64,000 nt of DNA from a virus. The notes beneath the pieces are model-generated. The model was not told the DNA's origin. It made no database searches and worked only from the letters and a program-made list of their open reading frames with translations. Both the position numbers and the translations under genes were made by a program. This document shows positions 3,918-27,477 of the stretch, in pieces. Each line of letters begins with the position of its first letter. Within the stretch, counting starts at the first letter, position 1. The stretch is from the IMG/VR virus record IMGVR_UViG_3300045988_023906. One strand, 5' to 3'.

Positions 3918-4855
3918 TATACTTCAGTTTTAAGATACATTGTTTCTGCATTATATGTGGTAAGGAATGGCAGGTCTCTATCAATGAGAGGCTCACATTG
4001 ATTAGCACAGAAGTTTACAAACAAATTAACCATATAAGATGCAATCATATTTGCACAGAAGGTAGTTTGTTTATAGGAGCAGATAGTTTCATCAGCTTCT
4101 GCATCAGAGAATAGGAACTCATTATTGTACCTATTGATGTTGTACTCATCATCTCCCTTGATACACAATACCTGAAACTCTTCTGCTGCTAATCTGCCAT
4201 CAATAAATAAGCAATTCTTTCTCTCCTCTTCTGGTTTGGATTGAACATGATTTACCCATTTATTAAAGAAGAGTCTTCTTGCTGCCATATTATCAAAGCC
4301 ACAAATCATAATGTCTGATGCTTCAGATTCATTGGTAAATCTCTCATTTATTGCAAAGACACTGCTATAGCCAGCATAGTTTCTAATCATCTCAGCCAGT
4401 GCAGATACTTTAGGTCTACCTAAATCAGATTGACCATATAACTGACCTGACATATTGACAGCTTCTACTATGTCATCATCATAGATAAACATAGAAGCTG
4501 GCTTCATTCTTGCCAATAAAAAGCCTACATAACTACCAATACCACCTACACCTGCCAAAATGACAGTCTTCTTCTGAATGTTCTCATACCAAATGGCAGA
4601 ACTAAACCTACTTGTAGCTTCATCCACAAGCAAAGTTGCAGAGTTTGTAGGTATCTCTTGATGTGCATCTTCTACAGCTTGGTCAAGGATAGCCTGTTCT
4701 TCTTCTGAAAGTCCAGAGCTAATACTATCACCATCATTTTCCATAGGATTATCTGATTCAGGCATAGTACTCTCATTGAGGTCCTCTATAAAAGAATTAT
4801 AAGCTTCCTGTGAAGTTGCAGAAAGGCTTTCTCGGGCTGTTACTTCTTCATTCAT
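3917..4855 (-). CDS. E1-like / ThiF-MoeB family adenylyltransferase
   Basis: 312 aa. It has an acidic N-terminal tail, then a Rossmann segment KKTVILAGVGGIGSYVGFLLARM (GxGxxG). That is followed by D-rich DDD..NMSGQ, as in ThiF/MoeB/E1 nucleotide-binding folds. Confidence 0.65.
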   Translation of the reverse strand: MNEEVTARESLSATSQEAYNSFIEDLNESTMPESDNPMENDGDSISSGLSEEEQAILDQAVEDAHQEIPTNSATLLVDEATSRFSSAIWYENIQKKTVILAGVGGIGSYVGFLLARMKPASMFIYDDDIVEAVNMSGQLYGQSDLGRPKVSALAEMIRNYAGYSSVFAINERFTNESEASDIMICGFDNMAARRLFFNKWVNHVQSKPEEERKNCLFIDGRLAAEEFQVLCIKGDDEYNINRYNNEFLFSDAEADETICSYKQTTFCANMIASYMVNLFVNFCANQCEPLIDRDLPFLTTYNAETMYLKTEV

Positions 4856-9123: not shown

Positions 9124-10047
9124 TTATTTACCAAAATCCCAAGGAGAAGACTCTTCTGCCTTAGGGAAAGGCATGTCACTTGAGCCTAAGTTGTTGAAGT
9201 CAGTAGCTTCTACAGTATATTCTCTAAAGGGTTTAATATCATACTCCACATTAGAGAATGCTCCGGCATTCTTTCTTTCTTGTAAGTCCTTATCTATTTC
9301 ACTGTAATTTCTTGCTCCATTTCTAAGTACTTTGTTAGTATATACTACCTGATATTGTTTTCCATCCTCAGTAGTTCTTACTCCAAACATCACCTTGACT
9401 TTATTCTTAGGCATAAGCTTAGGAACTTCATTAAGTTCAGAGAAATCTCCCTTAAACAGCTTATCCATATCAAGGGAACATTCACACTCCTCCATGTTAG
9501 CTACTTTGGGGTTCTTAACCCATTCACCATTAACATAGGAAAGTGCTTCATCAAAATTAAGATAGCTCTTAATAAATTCAATAAGTTGTATTTCTCCATT
9601 ATAGGCAGGCCTGTATTCAGTAGTAATTCTAAGGGCTTTACCAGTGCTACTTTTAAGAGTCGCTTTATTTTTCAGGTCCTCTGGGGTAGCCCAAGCACTA
9701 TAACCATATTTATCAATTACTTGTACCTTAGTTTTGTCTCTATTATACCTATAGGATTTATCTACAAAGAAAGTCATAGGAATAATTATATCTCCCTCTA
9801 CATCTGGTTTGACATAGAAAGTAACCATAACTTGAGGTACATTCTTACCATCTACCTCTCTTTCTCTCAGATATTCAGGCTCAGAGTCTATTTCTGCATT
9901 CAACAGTTTATTTCTTTCTTCTTTTGTGGGATTAACTGCTAAAACATATACAGGAGAAGCACCAATATACCTCTTAATACTTCCACCTTCTTTACTCTCT
10001 ACTGCTTTACCAAAAGCCATAAAACTAAAATTAATATTTTTATTCAT
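9124..10047 (-). CDS. hypothetical protein
   Basis: 307-aa ORF in the replication module. No motif recognised. The antisense ORF 9355-9942 is rejected. Confidence 0.6.
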   Translation of the reverse strand: MNKNINFSFMAFGKAVESKEGGSIKRYIGASPVYVLAVNPTKEERNKLLNAEIDSEPEYLREREVDGKNVPQVMVTFYVKPDVEGDIIIPMTFFVDKSYRYNRDKTKVQVIDKYGYSAWATPEDLKNKATLKSSTGKALRITTEYRPAYNGEIQLIEFIKSYLNFDEALSYVNGEWVKNPKVANMEECECSLDMDKLFKGDFSELNEVPKLMPKNKVKVMFGVRTTEDGKQYQVVYTNKVLRNGARNYSEIDKDLQERKNAGAFSNVEYDIKPFREYTVEATDFNNLGSSDMPFPKAEESSPWDFGK

Positions 10048-13590: not shown

Positions 13591-14726
13591 AATGTTATTT
13601 CATTTATATTATTAATAGTAACTATAGACTCTTCTGAATACTCCTCTATCATCTTCTGCGCAAGTTCTTCTTCCCTTGTATCCTTGAAATAAGGTATAAT
13701 GATAATAGGAGATTTGTGTCTAAGTATTCTACCAACTCTTTGCTTTACTACAATCTCCGAACTATTCAAGTTGCAGAATATACCTATCCTACAATTAGTC
13801 AAGTTCACACCTTCATTGAGTATGTTACAGGCAGTAATATGCTTAATCTTGTTAAGATTAAACATTTCAAGGTTCTTCACTGAAGCCTTATTCTTTGAGG
13901 TGATATTGTATTTACTTAACCTCTCTGACTGCTCAATACTACTACAGAAAGTCAAAGTCTTGTAATTCCTGAACTTGTCAAGAAGAGATAGTACAAGGGC
14001 TTCCTTCTGTTCAGCACACCACTTCAGCCTTTTGCCTGCTGTTGAAAGCCATAAGTTCTTTATCCTCTCATCTCTTGAGTTAAAGTACCTATTCTTGTAC
14101 CACTCTATAAGTGAAGAGATACTATCATAGCAACCTTTCTGAGTGGTGATTATATCACGACCAAACTTCTTAACCTTATAGGTATAATTAGTAGTGTCCA
14201 AAGTCAAAGGCAGTAGATATACTGTAGGCTCAGGTAGTACTTCATCTTCTACAGCCTCCTTGAGACTACACTTAATGACCTCAGCCTTGTGGTTGTAAAT
14301 GAAATAATCCCTCATGTCTCTCTTAATAGTGGCAGACAATCCAATGAAAGACTCATTGATATGGATAGTCTCCAATACATCAATTCTTGCTTCTGACAAA
14401 TGCTGCATCTCATCTGCCACTACTACATCAAAGTATGAGTTCTCATAGTTCTTTAGTGACTCATAGCATTCAATGGTAATATAGTCAGACTTGATACCTC
14501 CCCATCTCTCAATCTCCTCCTTCCAAGTCTGCTTATGCACAGTCTTGGCTACAAGGATAAGTATAGTAGTAGGACACTCATCATTCCTGAATACCCTATC
14601 ACATATATGATTAATGAGGTCTATTGCTACTTTGGTCTTACCATACCCAGTAATAAGCTCTAAAATCATGTACTTGCTCTTATCAACTACTTCAAGAGCT
14701 TTCTTTTGTATCTCTTCTCTTTTCAT
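13587..14726 (-). CDS. superfamily 2 DEAD/DExH-type helicase
   Basis: 379 aa. Motif I is LITGYGKTKVA, motif II is VVADEMQH, motif III is LSAT and motif VI is QRVGRILR. Confidence 0.8.
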   Translation of the reverse strand: MKREEIQKKALEVVDKSKYMILELITGYGKTKVAIDLINHICDRVFRNDECPTTILILVAKTVHKQTWKEEIERWGGIKSDYITIECYESLKNYENSYFDVVVADEMQHLSEARIDVLETIHINESFIGLSATIKRDMRDYFIYNHKAEVIKCSLKEAVEDEVLPEPTVYLLPLTLDTTNYTYKVKKFGRDIITTQKGCYDSISSLIEWYKNRYFNSRDERIKNLWLSTAGKRLKWCAEQKEALVLSLLDKFRNYKTLTFCSSIEQSERLSKYNITSKNKASVKNLEMFNLNKIKHITACNILNEGVNLTNCRIGIFCNLNSSEIVVKQRVGRILRHKSPIIIIPYFKDTREEELAQKMIEEYSEESIVTINNINEITL

Positions 14727-15355
14727 AATAACTGTCTTGTTAAATAAAACCTTTTCTTATACAGATGATTTCTGCTTTTAATTAAACACCAACTGATAGA
14801 TTGTATGGAGCCTCCAACATAGGATGCTGCTTCTTCCAAAGTATTTACTTTACATAACAAAACTTTATTAAGGTCATAGATATAAACTCCTTTTTGTCTT
14901 TTAGCACAAGACTTACTGTTGGCTTCACCTATTTTCCTCTTTGTTTCATCTGATAAAGTAACTCCTCTTCTTGGATTAACATAGCCATTTCTATAGTTTT
15001 CCTTGAGAGAGTTTCTTATCCTCTCCTTAGTACTTTCCAACATATTGCCCACAGCTTTAGTAACTGTAAGCTCAGTATTATACTCAGGATGTAGGCTATC
15101 CACATAGAATTGTTCCCTTTCAACTAATTTATCTTCATCACATCTTTCAAGTACAAAGAAATGAAATTTATCTTCTCCATACTTGTTCCAAGCATTTTGA
15201 AGATGAGGACTATGATGACAATTATGTCTTAAAGTACTTCTATGTTTCTGCCATCTACTATAGATGTTTTTGCTACTTCCCACATATTTCTTACCATTTT
15301 GTGTGTTCAAAATACAATAAACACCTGAAAACTTAAATTCTTGACTAATAACCAT
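14723..15355 (-). mobile_element. GIY-YIG homing endonuclease gene
   Basis: 210 aa. GVYCILNTQNGKKYVGSSKNIYSRWQKH carries the GIY...YVG motifs. A C-terminal HTH-like segment reads EAASYVGGSIQSISWCL. It has its own -7 box at 15372-15379. Confidence 0.85.
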
Positions 15356-16164: not shown

Positions 16165-16689
16165 CTATATAGTAATCTTGTTGTCTAACTCAGAGGATAA
16201 AGGAAATATATTTTTTCTCTCCCTTCTTACTACCTCTTGAGCCTCCTCTAAGGTATTATATCTACCAAAGGAATGGCCCCCAATTCTTACCCTATATTTA
16301 CCATCCTCTATGGTGATGTTCCTACATTTAGTAGTACTATTCAGAGTAATAGAAACATTTTGAGCATTCTGCTCTTTGCTAACCTCTCTAAGATTATTTC
16401 TAACATTATTTAAGGTATTATGGTCAATATGGTCTACAACATTTTCAGGATTAGATTTCTCAAATATAAGATTATGAAGCCATATTTGCTTCCTAACCTT
16501 ATTAATTTGAATTTTAGTCTTAACTCCATCAATATGCCCACTTGTATTCCTATTGATATGCCAAGTTCCTCTTATTAAAGCTGCCTTAGGTAAATCAACT
16601 TTGTCTATATGACATAATAGTCGAGTTCCTTTATAGATAATCTCTAAAGCTACTACATTGTCATCTATTTCTACCACTCTGTTTTTCAT
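16165..16689 (-). mobile_element. HNH homing endonuclease with AP2-like DNA-binding domain
   Basis: 174 aa. VVDHIDHNTLNNVRNNLREVSKEQNAQN is an HNH_3-type motif. YRVRIGGHSFGRYNTLEEA is AP2-like. Confidence 0.75.
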
Positions 16690-18629: not shown

Positions 18630-19064
18630 TTAGTCCTCAAACACTTGATAGGTATATGATACACCTCCAAGATGTCTTACTGTTCTCTGCAAATGAGCTT
18701 CAAGTCTTTCCTTTTCACTCATTGCAGCCCACTTGCCAGGCTTAGACCATGAAGGACAAGAATCCTTATCAATCATATACTCATAAGCCTCCTTGCTCAT
18801 GTTCAGGGACTGTGTAGCTGATTTACACTTTCTTGTATGGAAAGTGATAATCTCTGGGTTGGTACCATTGTTGTCAGTCACTCTCATAGTGTGCTTCTCC
18901 ATCTTGTCCCAATCCTCTACTTTTACCTCAATGGTTTTCTTGTAGATTTTACCAGCTTTGGTCTTCTTCTCAATCACTTTGTGAGTTGTTTTAAGGCACT
19001 CCTCCTTGCTGAACATTGTGCTTCCTCGAAGCTCAATACTCAGACTTAACTTGATTTCACTCAT
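18630..19064 (-). CDS. hypothetical protein
   Basis: 144-aa ORF followed by a strong terminator. Confidence 0.55.
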   Translation of the reverse strand: MSEIKLSLSIELRGSTMFSKEECLKTTHKVIEKKTKAGKIYKKTIEVKVEDWDKMEKHTMRVTDNNGTNPEIITFHTRKCKSATQSLNMSKEAYEYMIDKDSCPSWSKPGKWAAMSEKERLEAHLQRTVRHLGGVSYTYQVFED

Positions 19065-19069
19065 GTTTA

Positions 19070-19435
19070 TTAATCTTCTTCAGATTCTCCCTTCATAATT
19101 GCAGCAAGCATAAGAGCAGCCATTGCATCTTTTGCTGTGGCTTCTCCCTTATCTGCTTTTTCTCTCAACTCCTCTGCCATTTTAATGTGAAGAGTATGTT
19201 TCAAGGCTTCAATAGTGCCCATTAATTCTCTCACATTGAGGAATATTGCACTTATTACAATCACCTCGACAGGTGCTTGCATTGTCTTACCTTTGTAGCT
19301 TTCCACCAAGTTTTCAACAAGTTCAACATTGGTTAAACCACCATTCTCTTTGCCACCTTTAATGACTTTTGCAGCATTTTCAAATGACTGCTCATCCAAC
19401 TTTCTTTCAAGTGGATTCTGTTCTTTTTCTTTCAT
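19070..19435 (-). CDS. hypothetical protein
   Basis: 121-aa ORF. Confidence 0.55.
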   Translation of the reverse strand: MKEKEQNPLERKLDEQSFENAAKVIKGGKENGGLTNVELVENLVESYKGKTMQAPVEVIVISAIFLNVRELMGTIEALKHTLHIKMAEELREKADKGEATAKDAMAALMLAAIMKGESEED

Positions 19436-19470
19436 CTTTTTTGATAATTTAATTATTAGTTTGTTAATTG

Positions 19471-19851
19471 TGGAGCATAGGGGACTCGAACCCCTGTCTT
19501 ACCAACCTTTAATAAAAGAATTACACATGCTTACTACTTTTTAATGTGGTCAGTTACCCACTGGGTCTGTCTGGATTTACAGCATTTCCACCACCTCATT
19601 TTATTGTCCATAAACAAGGAAAAAGTTGAGTTACCTTCTGCGAGACCACAGCCTATTAATGCTCTTAAAGTCGGACCCTCAGCCTTAGTCTTCATTCAGG
19701 CTTTGCACCTTTCTGTTTCCAAGTAAGTGCTACTCAGCCTATTTAGGCAGCAACTCTATAAGAAGTATTGCCAGTTATTGTTTTGATGTCTTTCCATCAG
19801 TCTTTGCATGTTCTCTTACCAAATAATCAGCAATCAAAACCAAAATGCCCC
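19471..19851 (-). ncRNA. ssrA: tmRNA (transfer-messenger RNA), about 381 nt
   Basis: The minus-strand RNA begins GGGGCAUUUUGGUUUUGAUUGC. It ends GACAGGGGUUCGAGUCCCCUAUGCUCCA. The 5' GGGGCAU pairs with the 3' AUGCUCC, including a G3-U70 wobble, and the discriminator is A. A T-arm GGGGUUCGAGUCCCC is present. An internal tag frame reads GGC AAU ACU UCU UAU AGA GUU GCU GCC UAA. No protein ORF is credible here. Confidence 0.8.
19743..19772 (-). other. tmRNA tag-peptide reading frame (GNTSYRVAA + UAA)
   Basis: It is preceded by AACUGGC, as in the Bacteroidetes tmRNA resume region. It ends in the hydrophobic-Ala-Ala pattern typical of degradation tags. Confidence 0.65.
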
Positions 19852-19980
19852 TTTATTGCCTTGATTCTTTTCTAAGAACAAGGTGCAAGCTAAAACAAGA
19901 AATAGTAGCTTACCTACCAGCACCACATTTTCAGTCATTTTGCCCAGCATGGTCAGGAAATAGTGGTTAAATAGACATTG

Positions 19981-20054
19981 TATCTCCAGTGAGACTCGAA
20001 CTCACAACCTACAGATTAGAAGTCTGTTGCTCTATCCAATTGAGCTATGGAGAC
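19981..20054 (-). tRNA. tRNA-Arg (anticodon TCT)
   Basis: The reverse complement folds as GTCTCCA TA GCTC AATTGGATA GAGC A ACAGA CTTCTAA TCTGT AGGTT GTGAG TTCGAGT CTCAC TGGAGAT A. This is a clean cloverleaf. Confidence 0.9.
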
Positions 20055-20056
20055 AT

Positions 20057-20092
20057 CACAAAAGGTCAGATATTCTCACGAACCTCTGACCT
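20057..20092 (-). terminator. possible terminator hairpin
   Basis: The minus strand reads AGGTCAGA-(16 nt)-TCTGACCT followed by UUUUG. It lies downstream of ORF 20141-20371. Confidence 0.4.
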
Positions 20093-20140
20093 GTAGTGAC
20101 AATATGTCACCCGAACTAAAAATCCTTTACCTAAAAATAA

Positions 20141-20371
20141 TTAAATTACCTTTCCTGTTATTTTGTTAAACCATCTGTATAAAGACAATACTTCAAACTC
20201 TTCCTCTGAGATTAGCTTATAGCAACAGAATATCATCACTACAACAGCTATAAGAGTCTGAAAGAAATATCCATTGTCATAGATGCTATCTACTCCTGCT
20301 ACAAAGAGTATAGTCACAAAGCCTGTTGTCCATAACAATATGCCTTTGATTATAAACTTAAATTTGTTCAT
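20141..20371 (-). CDS. small membrane protein
   Basis: 76 aa with two predicted hydrophobic helices. Confidence 0.45.
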   Translation of the reverse strand: MNKFKFIIKGILLWTTGFVTILFVAGVDSIYDNGYFFQTLIAVVVMIFCCYKLISEEEFEVLSLYRWFNKITGKVI

Positions 20372-20388: not shown

Positions 20389-20619
20389 TTAAGTTGAAAA
20401 TAATTCAAGCACATCTTCTGTACTAAACTCTACCTTATTCTCATAGTCTATGTCAGACTTACTCATAGATTCACTGCCTTGATTATTCATAATGTTGCTA
20501 TGAGCTAAGGTATTATTATGCACAGAGATGTGCTTTATATATTCATCAATGACCAGTCCCACACTCTTGTCAAGAAGAGCATGAGACTGAGCAAAGATGT
20601 ATAACTCTCTAATTGTCAC
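20389..20619 (-). CDS. hypothetical small protein
   Basis: 76-aa ORF in the early-gene arm. Confidence 0.4.
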   Translation of the reverse strand: MTIRELYIFAQSHALLDKSVGLVIDEYIKHISVHNNTLAHSNIMNNQGSESMSKSDIDYENKVEFSTEDVLELFST

Positions 20620-24488: not shown

Positions 24489-24559
24489 TGCCTTGTGGTG
24501 TAAAGGTAACACATGGGTCTTTGGTCCCCACATTGTAGGTTCGAGTCCTGCCAAGACAA
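24489..24559 (+). tRNA. tRNA-Gln (TTG)
   Basis: Acceptor TGCCTTG/CAAGACA (U1-A72, one mismatch). D stem GTGT/ACAC. Anticodon loop CTTTGGT. T-loop TTCGAGT. Confidence 0.75.
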
Positions 24560-24568
24560 CAAGAAGAT

Positions 24569-24640
24569 GCCCTCTTAGTACAAAGGACAGTACATAAGTC
24601 TTCTAAACTTAGAATATAGGTTCGATTCCTATAGGAGGTA
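24569..24640 (+). tRNA. tRNA-Arg (TCT)
   Basis: D stem GTAC/GTAC. Anticodon stem TAAGT/ACTTA with loop CTTCTAA. T arm ATAGG-TTCGATT-CCTAT. Confidence 0.75.
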
Positions 24641-24648
24641 CTTGTTAT

Positions 24649-24720
24649 GGGGATGTAGACTATGGGTTAGGTCATAGCCCTTTCAAGGCTAAGGATAAGG
24701 TTCAAATCCTTACTTCCCTA
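24649..24720 (+). tRNA. tRNA-Glu (TTC)
   Basis: Anticodon stem TAGCC/GGCTA with loop CTTTCAA. T arm TAAGG-TTCAAAT-CCTTA. Confidence 0.75.
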
Positions 24721-24725
24721 CTAAT

Positions 24726-24798
24726 AGATTATGTGGTGTAGTGGTCTGCATATCACACTGTCAATGTGAAGGCTAGGGTTCAATTCCCTCATAATCTG
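24726..24798 (+). tRNA. tRNA-Asp (GTC)
   Basis: Acceptor AGATTAT/ATAATCT. Anticodon stem TCACA/TGTGA with loop CTGTCAA. T-loop TTCAATT. Confidence 0.75.
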
Positions 24799-24844
24799 CC
24801 CTGTTTATAAGGAAGTCCTATATCACAGCGGTGATTAGGCAAAT

Positions 24845-24929
24845 GGAAAGGTAACTGAATGGGATTCAGCCTAGTCTTGAAAACTAAGGGAACAGTAAAA
24901 TGTTTGGGGGTCGGGACCTCATCTTTCCG
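24845..24929 (+). tRNA. tRNA-Ser (TGA), long variable arm
   Basis: Acceptor GGAAAGG/TCTTTCC. Anticodon loop CTTGAAA. Variable arm AACA-GTAAAA-TGTT. Atypical T-loop GTCGGGA. Confidence 0.6.
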
Positions 24930-24967
24930 CTAAATAGATGTGTTCATTGACTTATTGGTAAGGAATT

Positions 24968-25053
24968 GGAGAGTAAACCTAAGAGGTTTTAGGGACTGTC
25001 CGCTAAACAGATTGTACTAGCAATGGTATGTGTTTCGAGTACACTGCTCTCCG
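24968..25053 (+). tRNA. tRNA-Ser (GCT), long variable arm
   Basis: Acceptor GGAGAGT/GCTCTCC. Anticodon stem CTGT/ACAG with loop CCGCTAA. T-loop TTCGAGT. Confidence 0.65.
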
Positions 25054-25072
25054 CTAAATAATAAAAAAAAAT

Positions 25073-25147
25073 AGGGAATTAGTCCAGTTAGGTTAGGATG
25101 CAGCATTTGGGATGCTGAGGTCAAGAGTTCGAGTCTCTTATTCCCTA
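25073..25147 (+). tRNA. tRNA-Pro (TGG)
   Basis: Acceptor AGGGAAT/ATTCCCT. Anticodon stem CAGCA/TGCTG with loop TTTGGGA. T arm AAGAG-TTCGAGT-CTCTT. Confidence 0.85.
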
Positions 25148-25159
25148 CTAATCATTAAT

Positions 25160-25232
25160 GGGGAGGTAGCATAAATGGATAATGCGCTAGATTTGCACTC
25201 TGGAAGATTAGGTTCGAGTCCCACCTGCTCCA
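25160..25232 (+). tRNA. tRNA-Ala (TGC), weak T stem
   Basis: Acceptor GGGGAGG/CTGCTCC with G3-U70. D stem GCAT/ATGC. Anticodon stem CTAGA/TCTGG with loop TTTGCAC. The T stem has only 3 of 5 pairs. Confidence 0.6.
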
Positions 25233-25316
25233 CATTGTTTTCTTGTTTTTCATAATACTAAGCTTTGCTTGAACCCTCTTTTGGGTAGTTAGAGGTTAAA
25301 GAAACTGCCCTATCAA

Positions 25317-25390
25317 TGCTCCTTAGTTCAGTGGTTCAGAATAGTTCCCTTACAAGGAAAAGGTCATAGGTTCGAGTCCTATAGGAGCAA
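25317..25390 (+). tRNA. tRNA-Val (TAC)
   Basis: Acceptor TGCTCCT/AGGAGCA. Anticodon loop CTTACAA. T arm ATAGG-TTCGAGT-CCTAT. Confidence 0.85.
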
Positions 25391-25395
25391 CTAAT

Positions 25396-25467
25396 GGGGA
25401 TATAGCTGGAAGGTCTATGCACTTGGCTGTTAACCAAGAGATAAAAGTTCGATTCTTTTTATCCCCG
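25396..25467 (+). tRNA. tRNA-Asn (GTT)
   Basis: Acceptor GGGGATA/TATCCCC. Anticodon stem CTTGG/CCAAG with loop CTGTTAA. T arm AAAAG-TTCGATT-CTTTT. Confidence 0.8.
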
Positions 25468-25475
25468 CAAATTCT

Positions 25476-25547
25476 AGGTTCTTAGTTTAATTGGCAAAAC
25501 ACTTCTCTCCAAAAGAAGAGTTATGGGTTCGATTCCTTTAGAATCTG
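25476..25547 (+). tRNA. tRNA-Trp (CCA)
   Basis: Acceptor AGGTTCT/AGAATCT. D stem GTTT/AAAC. Anticodon stem CTTCT/AGAAG with loop CTCCAAA. Confidence 0.85.
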
Positions 25548-25553
25548 CATTAT

Positions 25554-25625
25554 TGGCACATCTTCTAATGGTCAGGAAGCTACTCTGATAAGGTAGTAAT
25601 CAAGGTTCAATTCCTTGTGTGCCAA
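25554..25625 (+). tRNA. tRNA-Ile (GAT)
   Basis: Acceptor TGGCACA/TGTGCCA. Anticodon stem CTACT/GGTAG with loop CTGATAA. T arm CAAGG-TTCAATT-CCTTG. Confidence 0.85.
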
Positions 25626-25631
25626 CTATAT

Positions 25632-25703
25632 TCTGATGTACTTCAATGGTAGAAGGCTGCTCTCATAAGGCAGTAGTTAGTGGTTCAAGTCCACTCATCA
25701 GAA
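25632..25703 (+). tRNA. tRNA-Met (CAT); the elongator, initiator or Ile2 identity is unresolved
   Basis: Acceptor TCTGATG/CATCAGA. D stem CTTC/GAAG. Anticodon loop CTCATAA. T arm AGTGG-TTCAAGT-CCACT. Confidence 0.85.
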
Positions 25704-25723
25704 CTAGGTTAATGCCTTAATAT

Positions 25724-25797
25724 ACTCACTTAGCTCAGTAGGTTAGAGCAGGAATCTTATACATTCAAGGTCAATGGTTCAAGTCCATTAGTGAGTA
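25724..25797 (+). tRNA. tRNA-Ile (TAT), AUA decoder
   Basis: Acceptor ACTCACT/AGTGAGT. D stem GCTC/GAGC. Anticodon loop CTTATAC. T arm AATGG-TTCAAGT-CCATT. Confidence 0.75.
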
Positions 25798-25802
25798 CTA
25801 AT

Positions 25803-25876
25803 GTTCCTATAGCTGAATTGGTTAAAGCAACAGTCTCTTAAACTGTGGACTCTGGGTTCAAGTCCCAGAGGGAACA
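25803..25876 (+). tRNA. tRNA-Lys (CTT)
   Basis: Anticodon stem ACAGT/ACTGT with loop CTCTTAA. T arm CTGGG-TTCAAGT-CCCAG. Confidence 0.75.
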
Positions 25877-25881
25877 CTCAT

Positions 25882-25953
25882 TTCCCTAAAGCATTGGTGG
25901 TAATGCTAGAGACCTTTAATCTCTGGAACTAGGTTCGACTCCTAGTGGGGAAA
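25882..25953 (+). tRNA. tRNA-Lys (TTT), with C at position 33
   Basis: Acceptor TTCCCTA/TGGGGAA. D stem GCAT/ATGC. Anticodon stem AGAGA/TCTCT with loop CCTTTAA. T arm CTAGG-TTCGACT-CCTAG. Confidence 0.7.
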
Positions 25954-25983
25954 CATAATTGTTTAACTCCAAATTTTACAGTT

Positions 25984-26091
25984 ATGAGAAGAGTTCTTGA
26001 TTTTATTAAGAAAGCTGGTAATGTTTATGTAAGAATCATTGCTAAGAGTCAGATGATGACTCCTACAGGGTCTATTCCAATACCGGAATAA
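25984..26091 (+). CDS. possible 35-aa mini-ORF inside the tRNA array
   Basis: Manual translation gives MRRVLDFIKKAGNVYVRIIAKSQMMTPTGSIPIPE. It is below the ORF-track cutoff and has no support beyond being open. Confidence 0.2.
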   Translation: MRRVLDFIKKAGNVYVRIIAKSQMMTPTGSIPIPE

Positions 26092-26117
26092 CCCTTCATT
26101 TGGAGGCAAACTAATTA

Positions 26118-26200
26118 GGGGTAGCTTTAATGTGGTGAATTAAAGCAGACTGTAAATCTGCTGCCATAGGCTATTTAAGGTTCGATTCCTTTCTGCCCCA
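26118..26200 (+). tRNA. tRNA-Tyr (GTA), long variable arm
   Basis: Acceptor GGGGTAG/CTGCCCC. Anticodon stem GCAGA/TCTGC with loop CTGTAAA. T-loop TTCGATT. Confidence 0.85.
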
Positions 26201-26268
26201 CTTCAATAGAAATCAAAGTCCTTGACTTATGGAAGGTGATGCAGGTAGAGACCTAAATAAGTCATTAT

Positions 26269-26343
26269 GGGTGTTAGGCAGGTATGGTTACATTGCGCAG
26301 GTCTGAAAAACCTGAGAATAAAGTTCGATTCTTTGAACACCAG
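26269..26343 (+). tRNA. tRNA-Phe (GAA)
   Basis: D stem GCAG/TTGC. Anticodon stem CAGGT/ACCTG with loop CTGAAAA. T arm TAAAG-TTCGATT-CTTTG. G1-A72 is a mismatch. Confidence 0.8.
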
Positions 26344-26354
26344 CTATATATAAT

Positions 26355-26442
26355 GCCCTCTTGGTGGAACAGGTAGACACAATAGCCTTAGAAGCTATGC
26401 TGAAGTAATAGTAAGGTAAGAGTTCGAGTCTCTTAGAGGGTA
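26355..26442 (+). tRNA. tRNA-Leu (TAG), long variable arm
   Basis: Acceptor GCCCTCT/AGAGGGT. Anticodon stem ATAGC/GCTAT with loop CTTAGAA. T arm AAGAG-TTCGAGT-CTCTT. Confidence 0.85.
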
Positions 26443-26474
26443 CTAAAAATAATTTGAAAATAGTTAGGAAAATA

Positions 26475-26506
26475 TTTGGTAGTTCCAATTATGTTGCTTA
26501 ACTTTG
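26475..26506 (+). promoter_or_regulatory. Bacteroides-type promoter (-33 TTTG, 20-nt spacer, -7 TAACTTTG)
   Basis: TTTG lies at 26475-26478 and TAACTTTG at 26499-26506. It is 20 nt upstream of the ATG at 26527. Confidence 0.55.
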
Positions 26507-26526
26507 CATTATTAAAATAAGAGAAT

Positions 26527-26973
26527 ATGTTTGAAGAAGATAGCCTATTTACTCCAATGGAATCAAGCAGAAGTACGGAAGTATCTGGTTCTCAGTTCTT
26601 TATTAACTTCTTAAATCAACTTGAAGGTTGGAAAACTAAGTGTAAGAACTTGCATTGGGCAGCACCTAAGAAAAATATCCATGTATATCTTGATGAGTTC
26701 CTTGATATATTGTCAGACTATCAGGATGGTCTTGCAGAAGGATATATGGGAATACTTGGTAAAATGCAACCTAATGCTATCAAGGGAACTCCAAGTGATG
26801 CACTGAATGCTTTTGACTTTATAAGTGAAGTTAAGTCTGCTACTATTGCATTTTATGATAAGATTCCTCAAGAGACTGCTTATAAAGGTATAGCATCTGA
26901 GTGTGAGACCTTTATTCAGAATATCAACAAGTATGACTACTTATTCCACTTATGTGATATAAGGCCATATTAA
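26527..26973 (+). CDS. Dps/ferritin-like four-helix-bundle protein
   Basis: 148 aa. KNLHWAAPKKNIHVYLDEFLDILSDYQDGLAE resembles the Dps signature (HW...H..lDef....D.iAE). Confidence 0.45.
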   Translation: MFEEDSLFTPMESSRSTEVSGSQFFINFLNQLEGWKTKCKNLHWAAPKKNIHVYLDEFLDILSDYQDGLAEGYMGILGKMQPNAIKGTPSDALNAFDFISEVKSATIAFYDKIPQETAYKGIASECETFIQNINKYDYLFHLCDIRPY

Positions 26974-26979
26974 GACACT

Positions 26980-27052
26980 GTCCCCTTAGTGTTAATGGTT
27001 AGCAAGCTTGTCTTGTAAACAAGAAGAGAAGGTTCAAATCCTTTAGGGGACT
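26980..27052 (+). tRNA. tRNA-Thr (TGT)
   Basis: Acceptor GTCCCCT/AGGGGAC. Anticodon stem CTTGT/ACAAG with loop CTTGTAA. T-loop TTCAAAT. Confidence 0.85.
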
Positions 27053-27239
27053 CACAAGTTACTAAAAGCTGTCTTATCTACAGTGAGAGAGTAACACTCA
27101 ATGCTACTAGATAAACCTCGGCAGGAGCTGACCTGCGCCACTGAAATTAAAAAGCTCAATGAGGTGTAGGTGATTGAGGGTGCAAGTTAAGGTGATACTT
27201 GCAATGCCTAAGTACCAGTTGCCCAAATCTTAGGCTCTT
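27053..27239 (+). ncRNA. structured 187-nt spacer inside the tRNA array (unclassified)
   Basis: Five hairpins by eye: TTATCTA...TAGATAA, GCAGG-AGCTGA-CCTGC, CTCAAT...ATTGAG, TGCAAGT...ACTTGCA and GCCTAAG...CTTAGGC. There is no ORF and no tRNA cloverleaf. Confidence 0.25.
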
Positions 27240-27311
27240 GTAGATATGGTGTTAGTGGTAGCATATGACATTGCCAATGTCAAGGGGTCAGTTCAAGTCT
27301 GATTATCTACT
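27240..27311 (+). tRNA. tRNA-Gly (GCC)
   Basis: Acceptor GTAGATA/TATCTAC. Anticodon stem TGACA/TGTCA with loop TTGCCAA. T arm GTCAG-TTCAAGT-CTGAT. Confidence 0.85.
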
Positions 27312-27315
27312 CAAT

Positions 27316-27386
27316 GTGGGATTAGTGTAATGGTAACATGTAACCCTTCCAAGGTTAATTTGACAGTTCGAGTCTGTTATCCCACT
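27316..27386 (+). tRNA. tRNA-Gly (TCC)
   Basis: Acceptor GTGGGAT/ATCCCAC. Anticodon stem TAACC/GGTTA with loop CTTCCAA. T-loop TTCGAGT. Confidence 0.85.
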
Positions 27387-27394
27387 CTAACATC

Positions 27395-27462
27395 GCGGGG
27401 AGAATTGGTATTCAATCCAGTCTCATAAGCTGGACTCCAAGTGTTCGATTCACTTCTCCGCA
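27395..27462 (+). tRNA. compact tRNA-like gene with CAT anticodon (68 nt)
   Basis: Acceptor GCGGGGA/TCTCCGC. Short D arm ATTG-GTATT-CAAT. Anticodon stem CCAGT/GCTGG with loop CTCATAA. T-loop TTCGATT. The junction numbering is irregular. Confidence 0.5.
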
Positions 27463-27477
27463 ACTAATTTAGATAAT

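Follow-up and report, generated by a model that had tools for sequence, protein, structure and literature searches.

A probably functional one-piece tmRNA with a phage-specific tag in crAss-like phages of the Asinivirinae

Does a gene for transfer-messenger RNA (tmRNA) in the genome of a crAss-like phage encode a working molecule, or is it a decoy, a decaying passenger or a mere fragment? This question is raised by positions 19471..19851 on the minus strand of IMG/VR record IMGVR_UViG_3300045988_023906, of which a stretch of 64,000 nt (the window) was analysed. An earlier note had described this locus as a full-length one-piece tmRNA with an altered tag. Few viruses in the human gut are more abundant than crAss-like phages, and to our knowledge the way in which these phages take over translation in Bacteroidales is poorly known. 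The presence of a tmRNA at 19471-19851 was confirmed, far beyond chance. With a probability of roughly 0.7, we consider it to be a functional, phage-resident one-piece tmRNA whose family is spread across the Asinivirinae crAss-like phages of Bacteroidales, because it was recognised by two detectors and has a conserved structure, invariant identity elements and an open tag frame.

ARAGORN called a tmRNA at 19470-19851 on the minus strand with the tag GNTSYRVAA*, and Rfam family RF00023 matched 19468-19851 with 67.5 bits (gathering score 47 bits) and E=4e-24 as computed for the 64-kb window, covering model positions 1-374 of 374 without truncation. Both of these runs, which the earlier note had proposed, were positive and above cutoff, and they agree on a full-length one-piece gene of 381 nt up to the discriminator A. 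The landmarks that had been described for its ends were also read in the sequence. The 5' strand of the acceptor stem, GGGGCAU (19845..19851; RNA 1-7), pairs with AUGCUCC (19478-19472) with G3·U70 as the third pair, and the discriminator A (A73) is position 19471. The 3' part of the molecule (19472..19530, minus strand) holds the 3' strand of helix H2, the T arm and the acceptor strand AUGCUCC. The T arm, A-GGGG-UUCGAGU-CCCC-U at 19495-19479, is preceded by GAC, and the position analogous to the D loop is occupied by UUGGUUUUGA. The tRNA-like domain (TLD) comprises a 7-bp acceptor stem with G3·U70 and A73, a 5-bp T stem and a UUCRANU loop, and an anticodon arm is absent. The gene does not encode the 3' CCA, its end being followed by CAA. 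The structure of minimum free energy for the single sequence contains the acceptor stem, the T arm, H2 and hairpins, and was not used as evidence. Taken alone, the folding energy of the single sequence was not significant (z=-1.31); significance is provided by the covariance model and the comparative data.

Between these ends lies the tag frame GGC AAU ACU UCU UAU AGA GUU GCU GCC UAA (19743..19772, minus strand; ARAGORN coding part RNA 80-109), which encodes (A)GNTSYRVAA and a stop, has the resume context UAACU-GGC and has no start codon. The tag read from the sequence is thus the one reported by ARAGORN. In the family described below, the frame was open from the resume codon to the stop in the loop of helix H5 in 48 out of 48 unique variants. 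Differences in tag length were 3 nt (insertion of TCT, deletion of ACT) or 15 nt, all multiples of three. Synonymous changes were seen (AAC/AAT, and GCT/GCA/GCC at an unpaired third position), the exchange of Arg and Lys (AGA/AAA) was conservative, and two sequences had TGA for TAA. The family tags DNTYRVAA, GNTSYRVAA, GNTYRAAA and rarer ones all end in Y-[R/K]-[V/A/M]-[A/V]-A. These patterns suggest that the phage-specific ending Y-R/K-V-A-A is under selection. As had been claimed, the tag differs from that of the host type, with YRVAA in the phage and YALAA in Bacteroidales.

The tmRNA of the window is not an isolated case. It is 99.7% identical to that of IMG/VR locus L036 (contig 3300014553_000007), a sensitive blastn search found homologues in three GenBank phages of the Steigviridae/Asinivirinae (cr106_1, cr128_1 and Kehishuvirus 'tikkala'), and 56 IMG/VR contigs, mostly of 90-100 kb, contain a conserved 21-nt word from H2. 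Among 60 family members, 50 were uninterrupted and full-length (40 called by ARAGORN and 10 longer forms above the Rfam cutoff), six had a group I intron in the T loop as their only interruption, and four were damaged or cut by the end of the locus. The genes fall into size classes of 301-303, 316, 377-388 (the class of the window) and 439-450 nt. Homology extends over the TLD, H2, the tag and H5, the surrounding genomes are crAss-like, and the gene lies downstream of tRNA-Arg: of the 55 loci in which the gene was mapped, nearly all have a tRNA-Arg(UCU) and/or (CCU) upstream of it on the same strand. ARAGORN missed ten intact forms of 439-450 nt (L007, L009, L014, L024, L027, L032, L042, L047, L053 and L054), which scored 53-66 bits with RF00023; pipelines that use ARAGORN only will therefore under-count phage tmRNAs.

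The genomic context of the window is that of a phage. A 20-kb stretch around the tmRNA matched crAss-like phages only, namely bajarodcaudo virus 1 (85% identity), cr85_1, the PhiCrAssBcn phages, IAS virus and Kehishuvirus. Of these, cr85_1 is Kahnovirus oralis (Crassvirales; Steigviridae; Asinivirinae), and by these matches we assign the genome, of which the window covers 64 kb out of ~98-100 kb, as Kahnovirus-like within the Steigviridae/Asinivirinae. This bears on the idea that the locus is an ssrA integration fragment of the attachment-site (attP) type, or that bacterial DNA was joined to a phage contig by mis-assembly. Although ssrA often serves as an integration site and prophages are known to hold fragments of it (PMC9004378), we regard this origin as extremely improbable, as the match is full-length and untruncated with the 5' end, the tag and the 3' end all in place, the synteny is shared by dozens of independent 90-100-kb contigs, the composition is phage-like and Bacteroidota tmRNAs are no more than 70% identical. 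An attP remnant was expected to be a 3' portion of ssrA that is near-identical to the host gene, which differs from what was found. The full-length match together with the 50 intact members out of 60 excludes an attachment-site remnant.

Conservation of the RNA structure was assessed in an alignment of 45 distinct family sequences, in which 59 base pairs drawn from the RNAalifold consensus were tested. These pairs were formed in 99.7% of the cells, compared to 40-50% when the partners were slid by 1-3 columns, and compensatory changes were observed for 8 pairs in 61 cells, a level that was reached in 0 of 500 shuffles. The acceptor stem (7/7 pairs), including G3·U70, and the discriminator A were invariant, and two T-stem pairs occurred in three pair types each (AU/GC/UA and GC/AU/UA). 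Helix H2, which links the TLD with the mRNA-like part and the 5' strand of which (19806..19832, minus strand; RNA 20-46) pairs with 19500-19530, has 26 pairs that were 100% paired, with many switches from G·U to A·U and one compensation from CG to UA. On the same strand, the hairpin UGAUG-GAAAGA-CAUCA at the position of pseudoknot PK1 (19785..19798) showed compensation from AU to UA in 4 sequences. Helix H5, which carries the stop codon in its loop (19732..19751, minus strand; RNAalifold and pair counts), was 98.9% paired and also showed compensatory change, and the hairpin GCACUU...AGGUGC just after it (19705..19730, minus strand) was compensated from GC to UA in 6 sequences. The 3' domain (19542..19596, minus strand) has two covarying hairpins at the position of PK4. 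One of these, GUGG/CCAC at 19546-19561, showed compensation in 3 of its 4 pairs, and in one relative all four were changed, to ACAG/CUGU.

The degree of conservation differed strongly along the molecule. Mean column identity was 0.93-0.97 for the TLD, H2 and the hairpin in the place of PK1, and 0.90 for the tag region, compared to 0.58 for a hypervariable, modular middle at the position of PK2-PK3 (19597..19704, minus strand), in which whole blocks were swapped or deleted between the size classes spanning 301 to 450 nt. Conserved ends around a variable middle match the expectation for a functional molecule, since PK2-PK4 of bacterial tmRNA were found to be replaceable in E. coli (PMC3968760). 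The motif (U/A)AGGCUG(A/U)G is present three times inside the tmRNA (19733-19741, 19677-19686 and 19646-19655, minus strand; RNA 111-119, 166-175 and 197-206), which may be the trace of an internal duplication of hairpin or pseudoknot modules.

A number of observations weigh against a functional tmRNA. The covariation counts stem from related sequences and represent few independent events; despite this, their direction is clear and favours selection on the structure. PK1, which was expected from the earlier note, was not found: in its place there is a 5-bp hairpin with a 6-nt loop that has no complementary partner upstream or downstream. Although typical of tmRNA, PK1 is not a strictly diagnostic feature; RF00023 does not model it as a pseudoknot, and E. 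coli tmRNA that has a hairpin instead of PK1 still supports tagging (Tanner 2006, as described in PMC3968760). A search by hand at the positions of PK1, PK2 and PK4 gave no pairing that was consistent across the subfamilies, the tools used being of a kind that does not predict pseudoknots. The PK2-PK4 region aligned poorly with RF00023, with low posterior probability; several of its hairpins covary, and the GCACUU...AGGUGC hairpin may be the first stem of PK2. Paired A-to-G changes in two AAAGAC repeats beside the hairpin in the place of PK1 were seen in short-form sequences only and are probably explained by shared ancestry. What stands of the proposed architecture is therefore that the tmRNA model can be placed and that the tag frame is present, with PK1 absent and PK2-PK4 not demonstrated.

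Other points on the same side come from the genomes. In bajarodcaudo virus 1, the closest relative, the tmRNA site is occupied by unrelated ORFs (open reading frames), no tmRNA was found in cr85_1 by blast, and the gene is accessory and dispensable. The high identity between genera could partly result from recent transfer and not from constraint. A scan of 19200-20300 on the tmRNA strand detected neither a sigma-70-like promoter nor an intrinsic terminator, and promoter-like sites in this region were fewer than in shuffles, with one on the plus strand; the scan does not extend to promoters of Bacteroides or phages and is therefore uninformative. Damaged copies of the gene also exist (L002, L004 and L037). 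L002, in the cultured Kehishuvirus 'tikkala' (OQ198717, about 4005-4308), has the tag DNTYRVAA and a 3' end that is replaced from the T loop onwards (…GGGTTCGAGTCCAACCATCCCCA). Its T and acceptor stems cannot form, G3·U70 is lost, and it was not called by ARAGORN or Rfam; GenBank labels the region as two hypothetical proteins. In L004 (IMG/VR 3300045988_100107), a deletion joins the H2 3' strand to the middle of a homologue of the 121-aa ORF that lies directly downstream of the window tmRNA (19070-19435), a case in which the tmRNA has decayed and the synteny with this ORF is conserved. L037 (IMG/VR 3300008272_000065) is a 91-nt gene at 9457-9550 on the minus strand of its locus that scored 47.3 bits, barely at the Rfam cutoff. 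It has suffered an internal deletion that left little beyond the TLD, it is known from a single contig, and it may be an assembly or deletion artefact.

Read together, the patchy distribution among close relatives, the damaged copies, the lost PK1, the scrambled middle and the non-significant folding energy would fit a non-functional passenger that was captured from a bacterium and is decaying in the phage genome. We consider this quite improbable, because compensatory changes were found in the T stem, H2 and several hairpins, all identity elements for alanyl-tRNA synthetase (AlaRS) are invariant, the tag frame stays in phase and shows synonymous changes, and 56 of the 60 copies are intact or interrupted by an intron only. 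Moreover, the family is far from host tmRNAs and yet has preserved the functional core.

This distance was determined by comparison with tmRNAs from GTDB genomes, in a scan that was confined to loci coding for tags of the form GE(T/N)NYALAA (GE.NYALAA), bacterial tags of the YRVAA type being outside its reach. Of the 120 loci that were obtained, nearly all were from Bacteroidota, and 101 had a tmRNA according to ARAGORN. Over the 5' 130 nt and the 3' 75 nt, the phage tmRNA was 58-70% identical to Bacteroidota tmRNAs. Its GC content was 0.41, which lies between that of the window (0.36) and the median of the Bacteroidota tmRNAs (0.47). This identity and the phage-like GC content point to an old, ameliorated resident under selection that is Bacteroidota-like in type, and rule out a recent capture from a host.

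The Bacteroides tag GETNYALAA, which had been given in the earlier note, is indeed that of Bacteroides sp. GD17, and the likeness to Bacteroides tmRNA that was noted with it holds for the resume context, the Gly-first tag, Tyr at -5 and the terminal AA, with an identity of only 58-70% even at the conserved ends. The tmRNAs of Bacteroides sp. GD17 and Parabacteroides sp. ASD2025, with the tag GE(T/N)NYALAA, share with the phage tmRNA the architecture, G3·U70, A73, the T arm and H2, and a resume context of the form (A/U)(A/C)CU-GGC, which in Parabacteroides is UAACU-GGC and identical to that of the phage. The bacterial tmRNAs differ in having a true PK1 (AGUGC..GAUUU..GCACU..AAAUC) where the phage tmRNA has a hairpin, in the tag end YALAA instead of YRVAA and in a GC content of about 0.47-0.48 instead of 0.41, and the phage tmRNA is found in a phage genome in which no smpB was detected.

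The cofactor SmpB was sought in the 64-kb window of the ~98-kb genome by tblastn with E. coli SmpB, a query that was validated as PF01668, and was not found there (best E 1.3). Among the matches listed from 73 SmpB-matching phage records there was no crAss-like phage; they were Lak phages, huge phages and prophage-edge records. As no phage SmpB was detected, the tmRNA must rely on host SmpB, AlaRS, EF-Tu, RNase P and CCA-adding enzyme. A functional tmRNA would then work as follows. It would be transcribed from the minus strand, probably jointly with the upstream tRNA-Arg as suggested by synteny, and its ends would be trimmed by the host, the CCA-adding enzyme of which would supply the unencoded CCA. 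Host AlaRS would charge it with alanine by way of the invariant G3·U70 and A73, and the charged molecule would bind SmpB and EF-Tu of the host, as the lack of SmpB in the window implies. It would enter ribosomes stalled on broken mRNAs, resume translation at GGC, append (A)GNTSYRVAA and stop at the UAA in the H5 loop. The likely benefit is that ribosomes are kept free when host mRNA decay or nuclease-based defences produce non-stop complexes, and such a role fits a genome with 22 tRNA genes in the window.

The same dependence on the host pool is the starting point for a different proposal, in which the phage RNA is a decoy or competitor that titrates SmpB or outcompetes host tmRNA, so that the phage sets the fate of tagged proteins or dampens trans-translation. 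If no phage SmpB is available, the host pool must be drawn on, and the tag departs from that of the host at conserved positions, with R/K at -4 and V/A/M at -3; ClpX recognises a C-terminal LAA in E. coli (PMC3968760). There is also a precedent in the TLD-only tmRNA of mycobacteriophage DS6A, an inhibitor of trans-translation that perhaps acts by titrating SmpB (PMC4131195; PMC11915505), which the 91-nt TLD-only derivative L037 resembles. We nevertheless consider a decoy improbable, as the conserved frame, resume context, stop and H5 are not needed by a pure decoy, and L037 comes from the single, possibly artefactual contig mentioned above. In addition, the Caulobacter tag ends in AVAA, a natural -VAA degradation tag that still destabilises proteins; the phage tag may therefore still be a degron.

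Group I introns of ~870 nt were found in the T loop of six family alleles (L003, L013, L035, L040, L049 and L059). They are inserted between GGGUU and CGA(A/G)UCCC, after the UU of UUCGAAU, and the two alleles scanned with RF00028, L003 and L059, scored 86 and 88 bits, respectively. P1 of the intron forms a U·G pair at -1 (GGGUU/GACCC), the intron ends in G, and its removal restores the T loop exactly as in alleles without an intron. The intron of L003 (cr128_1, MT774392; 4431-5299) contains, on the opposite strand, an ORF of 186 aa with a match to endonuclease PHROGs (phrog_3322, E=7e-20), and in this Mahlunavirus both the tmRNA and the intron are unannotated. T-loop group I introns at 'position 3' have been reported only from tmRNA genes of the class Bacteroidia (PMC11915505), and the phage site corresponds to this position. 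Unlike these intron-form genes, the tmRNA of the window has no intron; a further difference is the endonuclease-like ORF that is found in the phage introns on the opposite strand. The 'position 3' introns may thus circulate between phages and hosts, or come from phage contigs that were binned into Bacteroidia genomes. We regard it as speculative, and unlikely as a whole, that such circulation or mis-binning goes together with a tmRNA that is a phage-adapted variant and not a spare copy, and that by its PK1-less design and its strictly conserved basic tag ending (Y-R/K-V/A/M-A-A, as opposed to Y-A-L-A-A in the host) would compete with host tmRNA for SmpB and send rescued chains to a different fate, which may be a slower or different proteolysis or a selective sparing of phage proteins.

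Returning to the functional tmRNA, its surroundings are rich in tRNA genes. A tRNA-Arg(UCU) at 19980-20054 on the minus strand (ARAGORN and Rfam) lies 128 nt upstream of the tmRNA, which bears out the earlier description of a crAss-like phage tmRNA adjoining this tRNA; the two are probably transcribed as one unit, and the tRNA probably reads the AGA codon of the tag. A further 21 tRNA genes form an array at 24489-27464 on the plus strand that is syntenic with cr85_1 and is interrupted by one ORF of 148 aa, Dps-like by the synteny with cr85_1. None of the 22 tRNA genes of the window has a suppressor anticodon. Opposite the tRNA-Arg, at 19980-20054 on the plus strand, a sub-threshold match to the Plastid-ycf2 5'UTR was seen (42 bits, cutoff 65.7), which is almost certainly an antisense-tRNA artefact. 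A permissive Rfam scan of 19300-20150 gave nothing further above threshold and no riboswitch; there was one sub-threshold match to permuted tmRNA.

The spacer directly upstream of the tmRNA contains an element of ~70 nt with hairpins (19852..19923, minus strand) that is single-copy in the window and has no match to an Rfam family. With about 90-100% identity it recurs near the tmRNA in 22 other loci, upstream in 20 of them (1 to 333 nt away) and downstream in two, both cr106_1. Possible roles are those of a promoter, a processing signal or a small RNA. The neighbours on the tmRNA strand encode a phosphoribosyltransferase, an SPFH/band-7 protein, HNH and GIY-YIG endonucleases, a glucosaminidase and an SNF2-like helicase. 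Both the GIY-YIG endonuclease gene (with NUMOD3; 14723-15355, minus strand) and the HNH endonuclease gene (16165-16689, minus strand) are free-standing, and their location a few kb from the tmRNA suggests active homing-endonuclease traffic there. The ORFs directly downstream, the 121-aa ORF and 18630-19064, matched no Pfam or PHROG family, and the small ORFs upstream of tRNA-Arg (20141-20371 and 20389-20619) matched no PHROG family in a scan of PHROGs only.

The combination of a conserved tmRNA, a tag specific to the phages and a large set of tRNA genes nearby suggests that infection by crAss-like phages can be limited by ribosome rescue. Such genes are missed or mis-annotated in public records, as is the case for the unannotated tmRNA of cr128_1, the two hypothetical proteins of 'tikkala' and the 439-450-nt forms that ARAGORN does not call.

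The closest described counterpart is the tmRNA of cr106_1 (MT774378 / NC_055871; Mahstovirus faecalis), which scores 74 bits in Rfam and is labelled 'transfer-messenger RNA, SsrA' in GenBank. It is ~91% identical to the window tmRNA over the aligned parts, has the same TLD, H2, hairpin in the place of PK1 and H5, lies downstream of tRNA-Arg and encodes the tag DNTYRVAA with the same YRVAA end. It belongs to a different genus and is 302-304 nt long instead of 381 nt because the middle module is deleted. Its resume codon is GAC (Asp) where the window has GGC (Gly), its tag has no Ser codon, and the ~70-nt element is downstream of the tmRNA instead of upstream.

Beyond the crAss-like phages, tmRNA genes were reported in 402 of 18,146 phage genomes, about 2.3% (PMC9004378); they are documented for eight mycobacteriophages, Bacillus phage G and, in the TLD-only form, DS6A (PMC4131195), and huge phages encode tmRNA together with SmpB (PMC7162821). 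Like the window gene, the tmRNAs of the cluster C mycobacteriophages (including Bxz1), phage G, Melnitz, and the huge and Lak phages are complete ssrA genes in lytic-type genomes with tRNAs. They are unrelated in sequence, and blast with the window gene finds crAss-like relatives only. The tmRNA of the OM43 phage Melnitz is two-piece, whereas that of the window is one-piece and without a riboswitch match, and the huge and Lak phages encode SmpB, unlike the window genome, which at ~100 kb is not jumbo and in the window of which none was found. A full-text literature search found no discussion of tmRNA in crAss-like phages, and the supplement files that we examined of the 2025 tmRNA database paper (PMC11915505) contained no phage or crAss entries. 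Phage tmRNAs are thus already known, and the GenBank label of cr106_1 shows that annotators had already seen a crAss-like tmRNA; the family-level detail, that is the basic tag, the PK1-less design, the modular middle and the intron alleles, is new in detail and not in kind.

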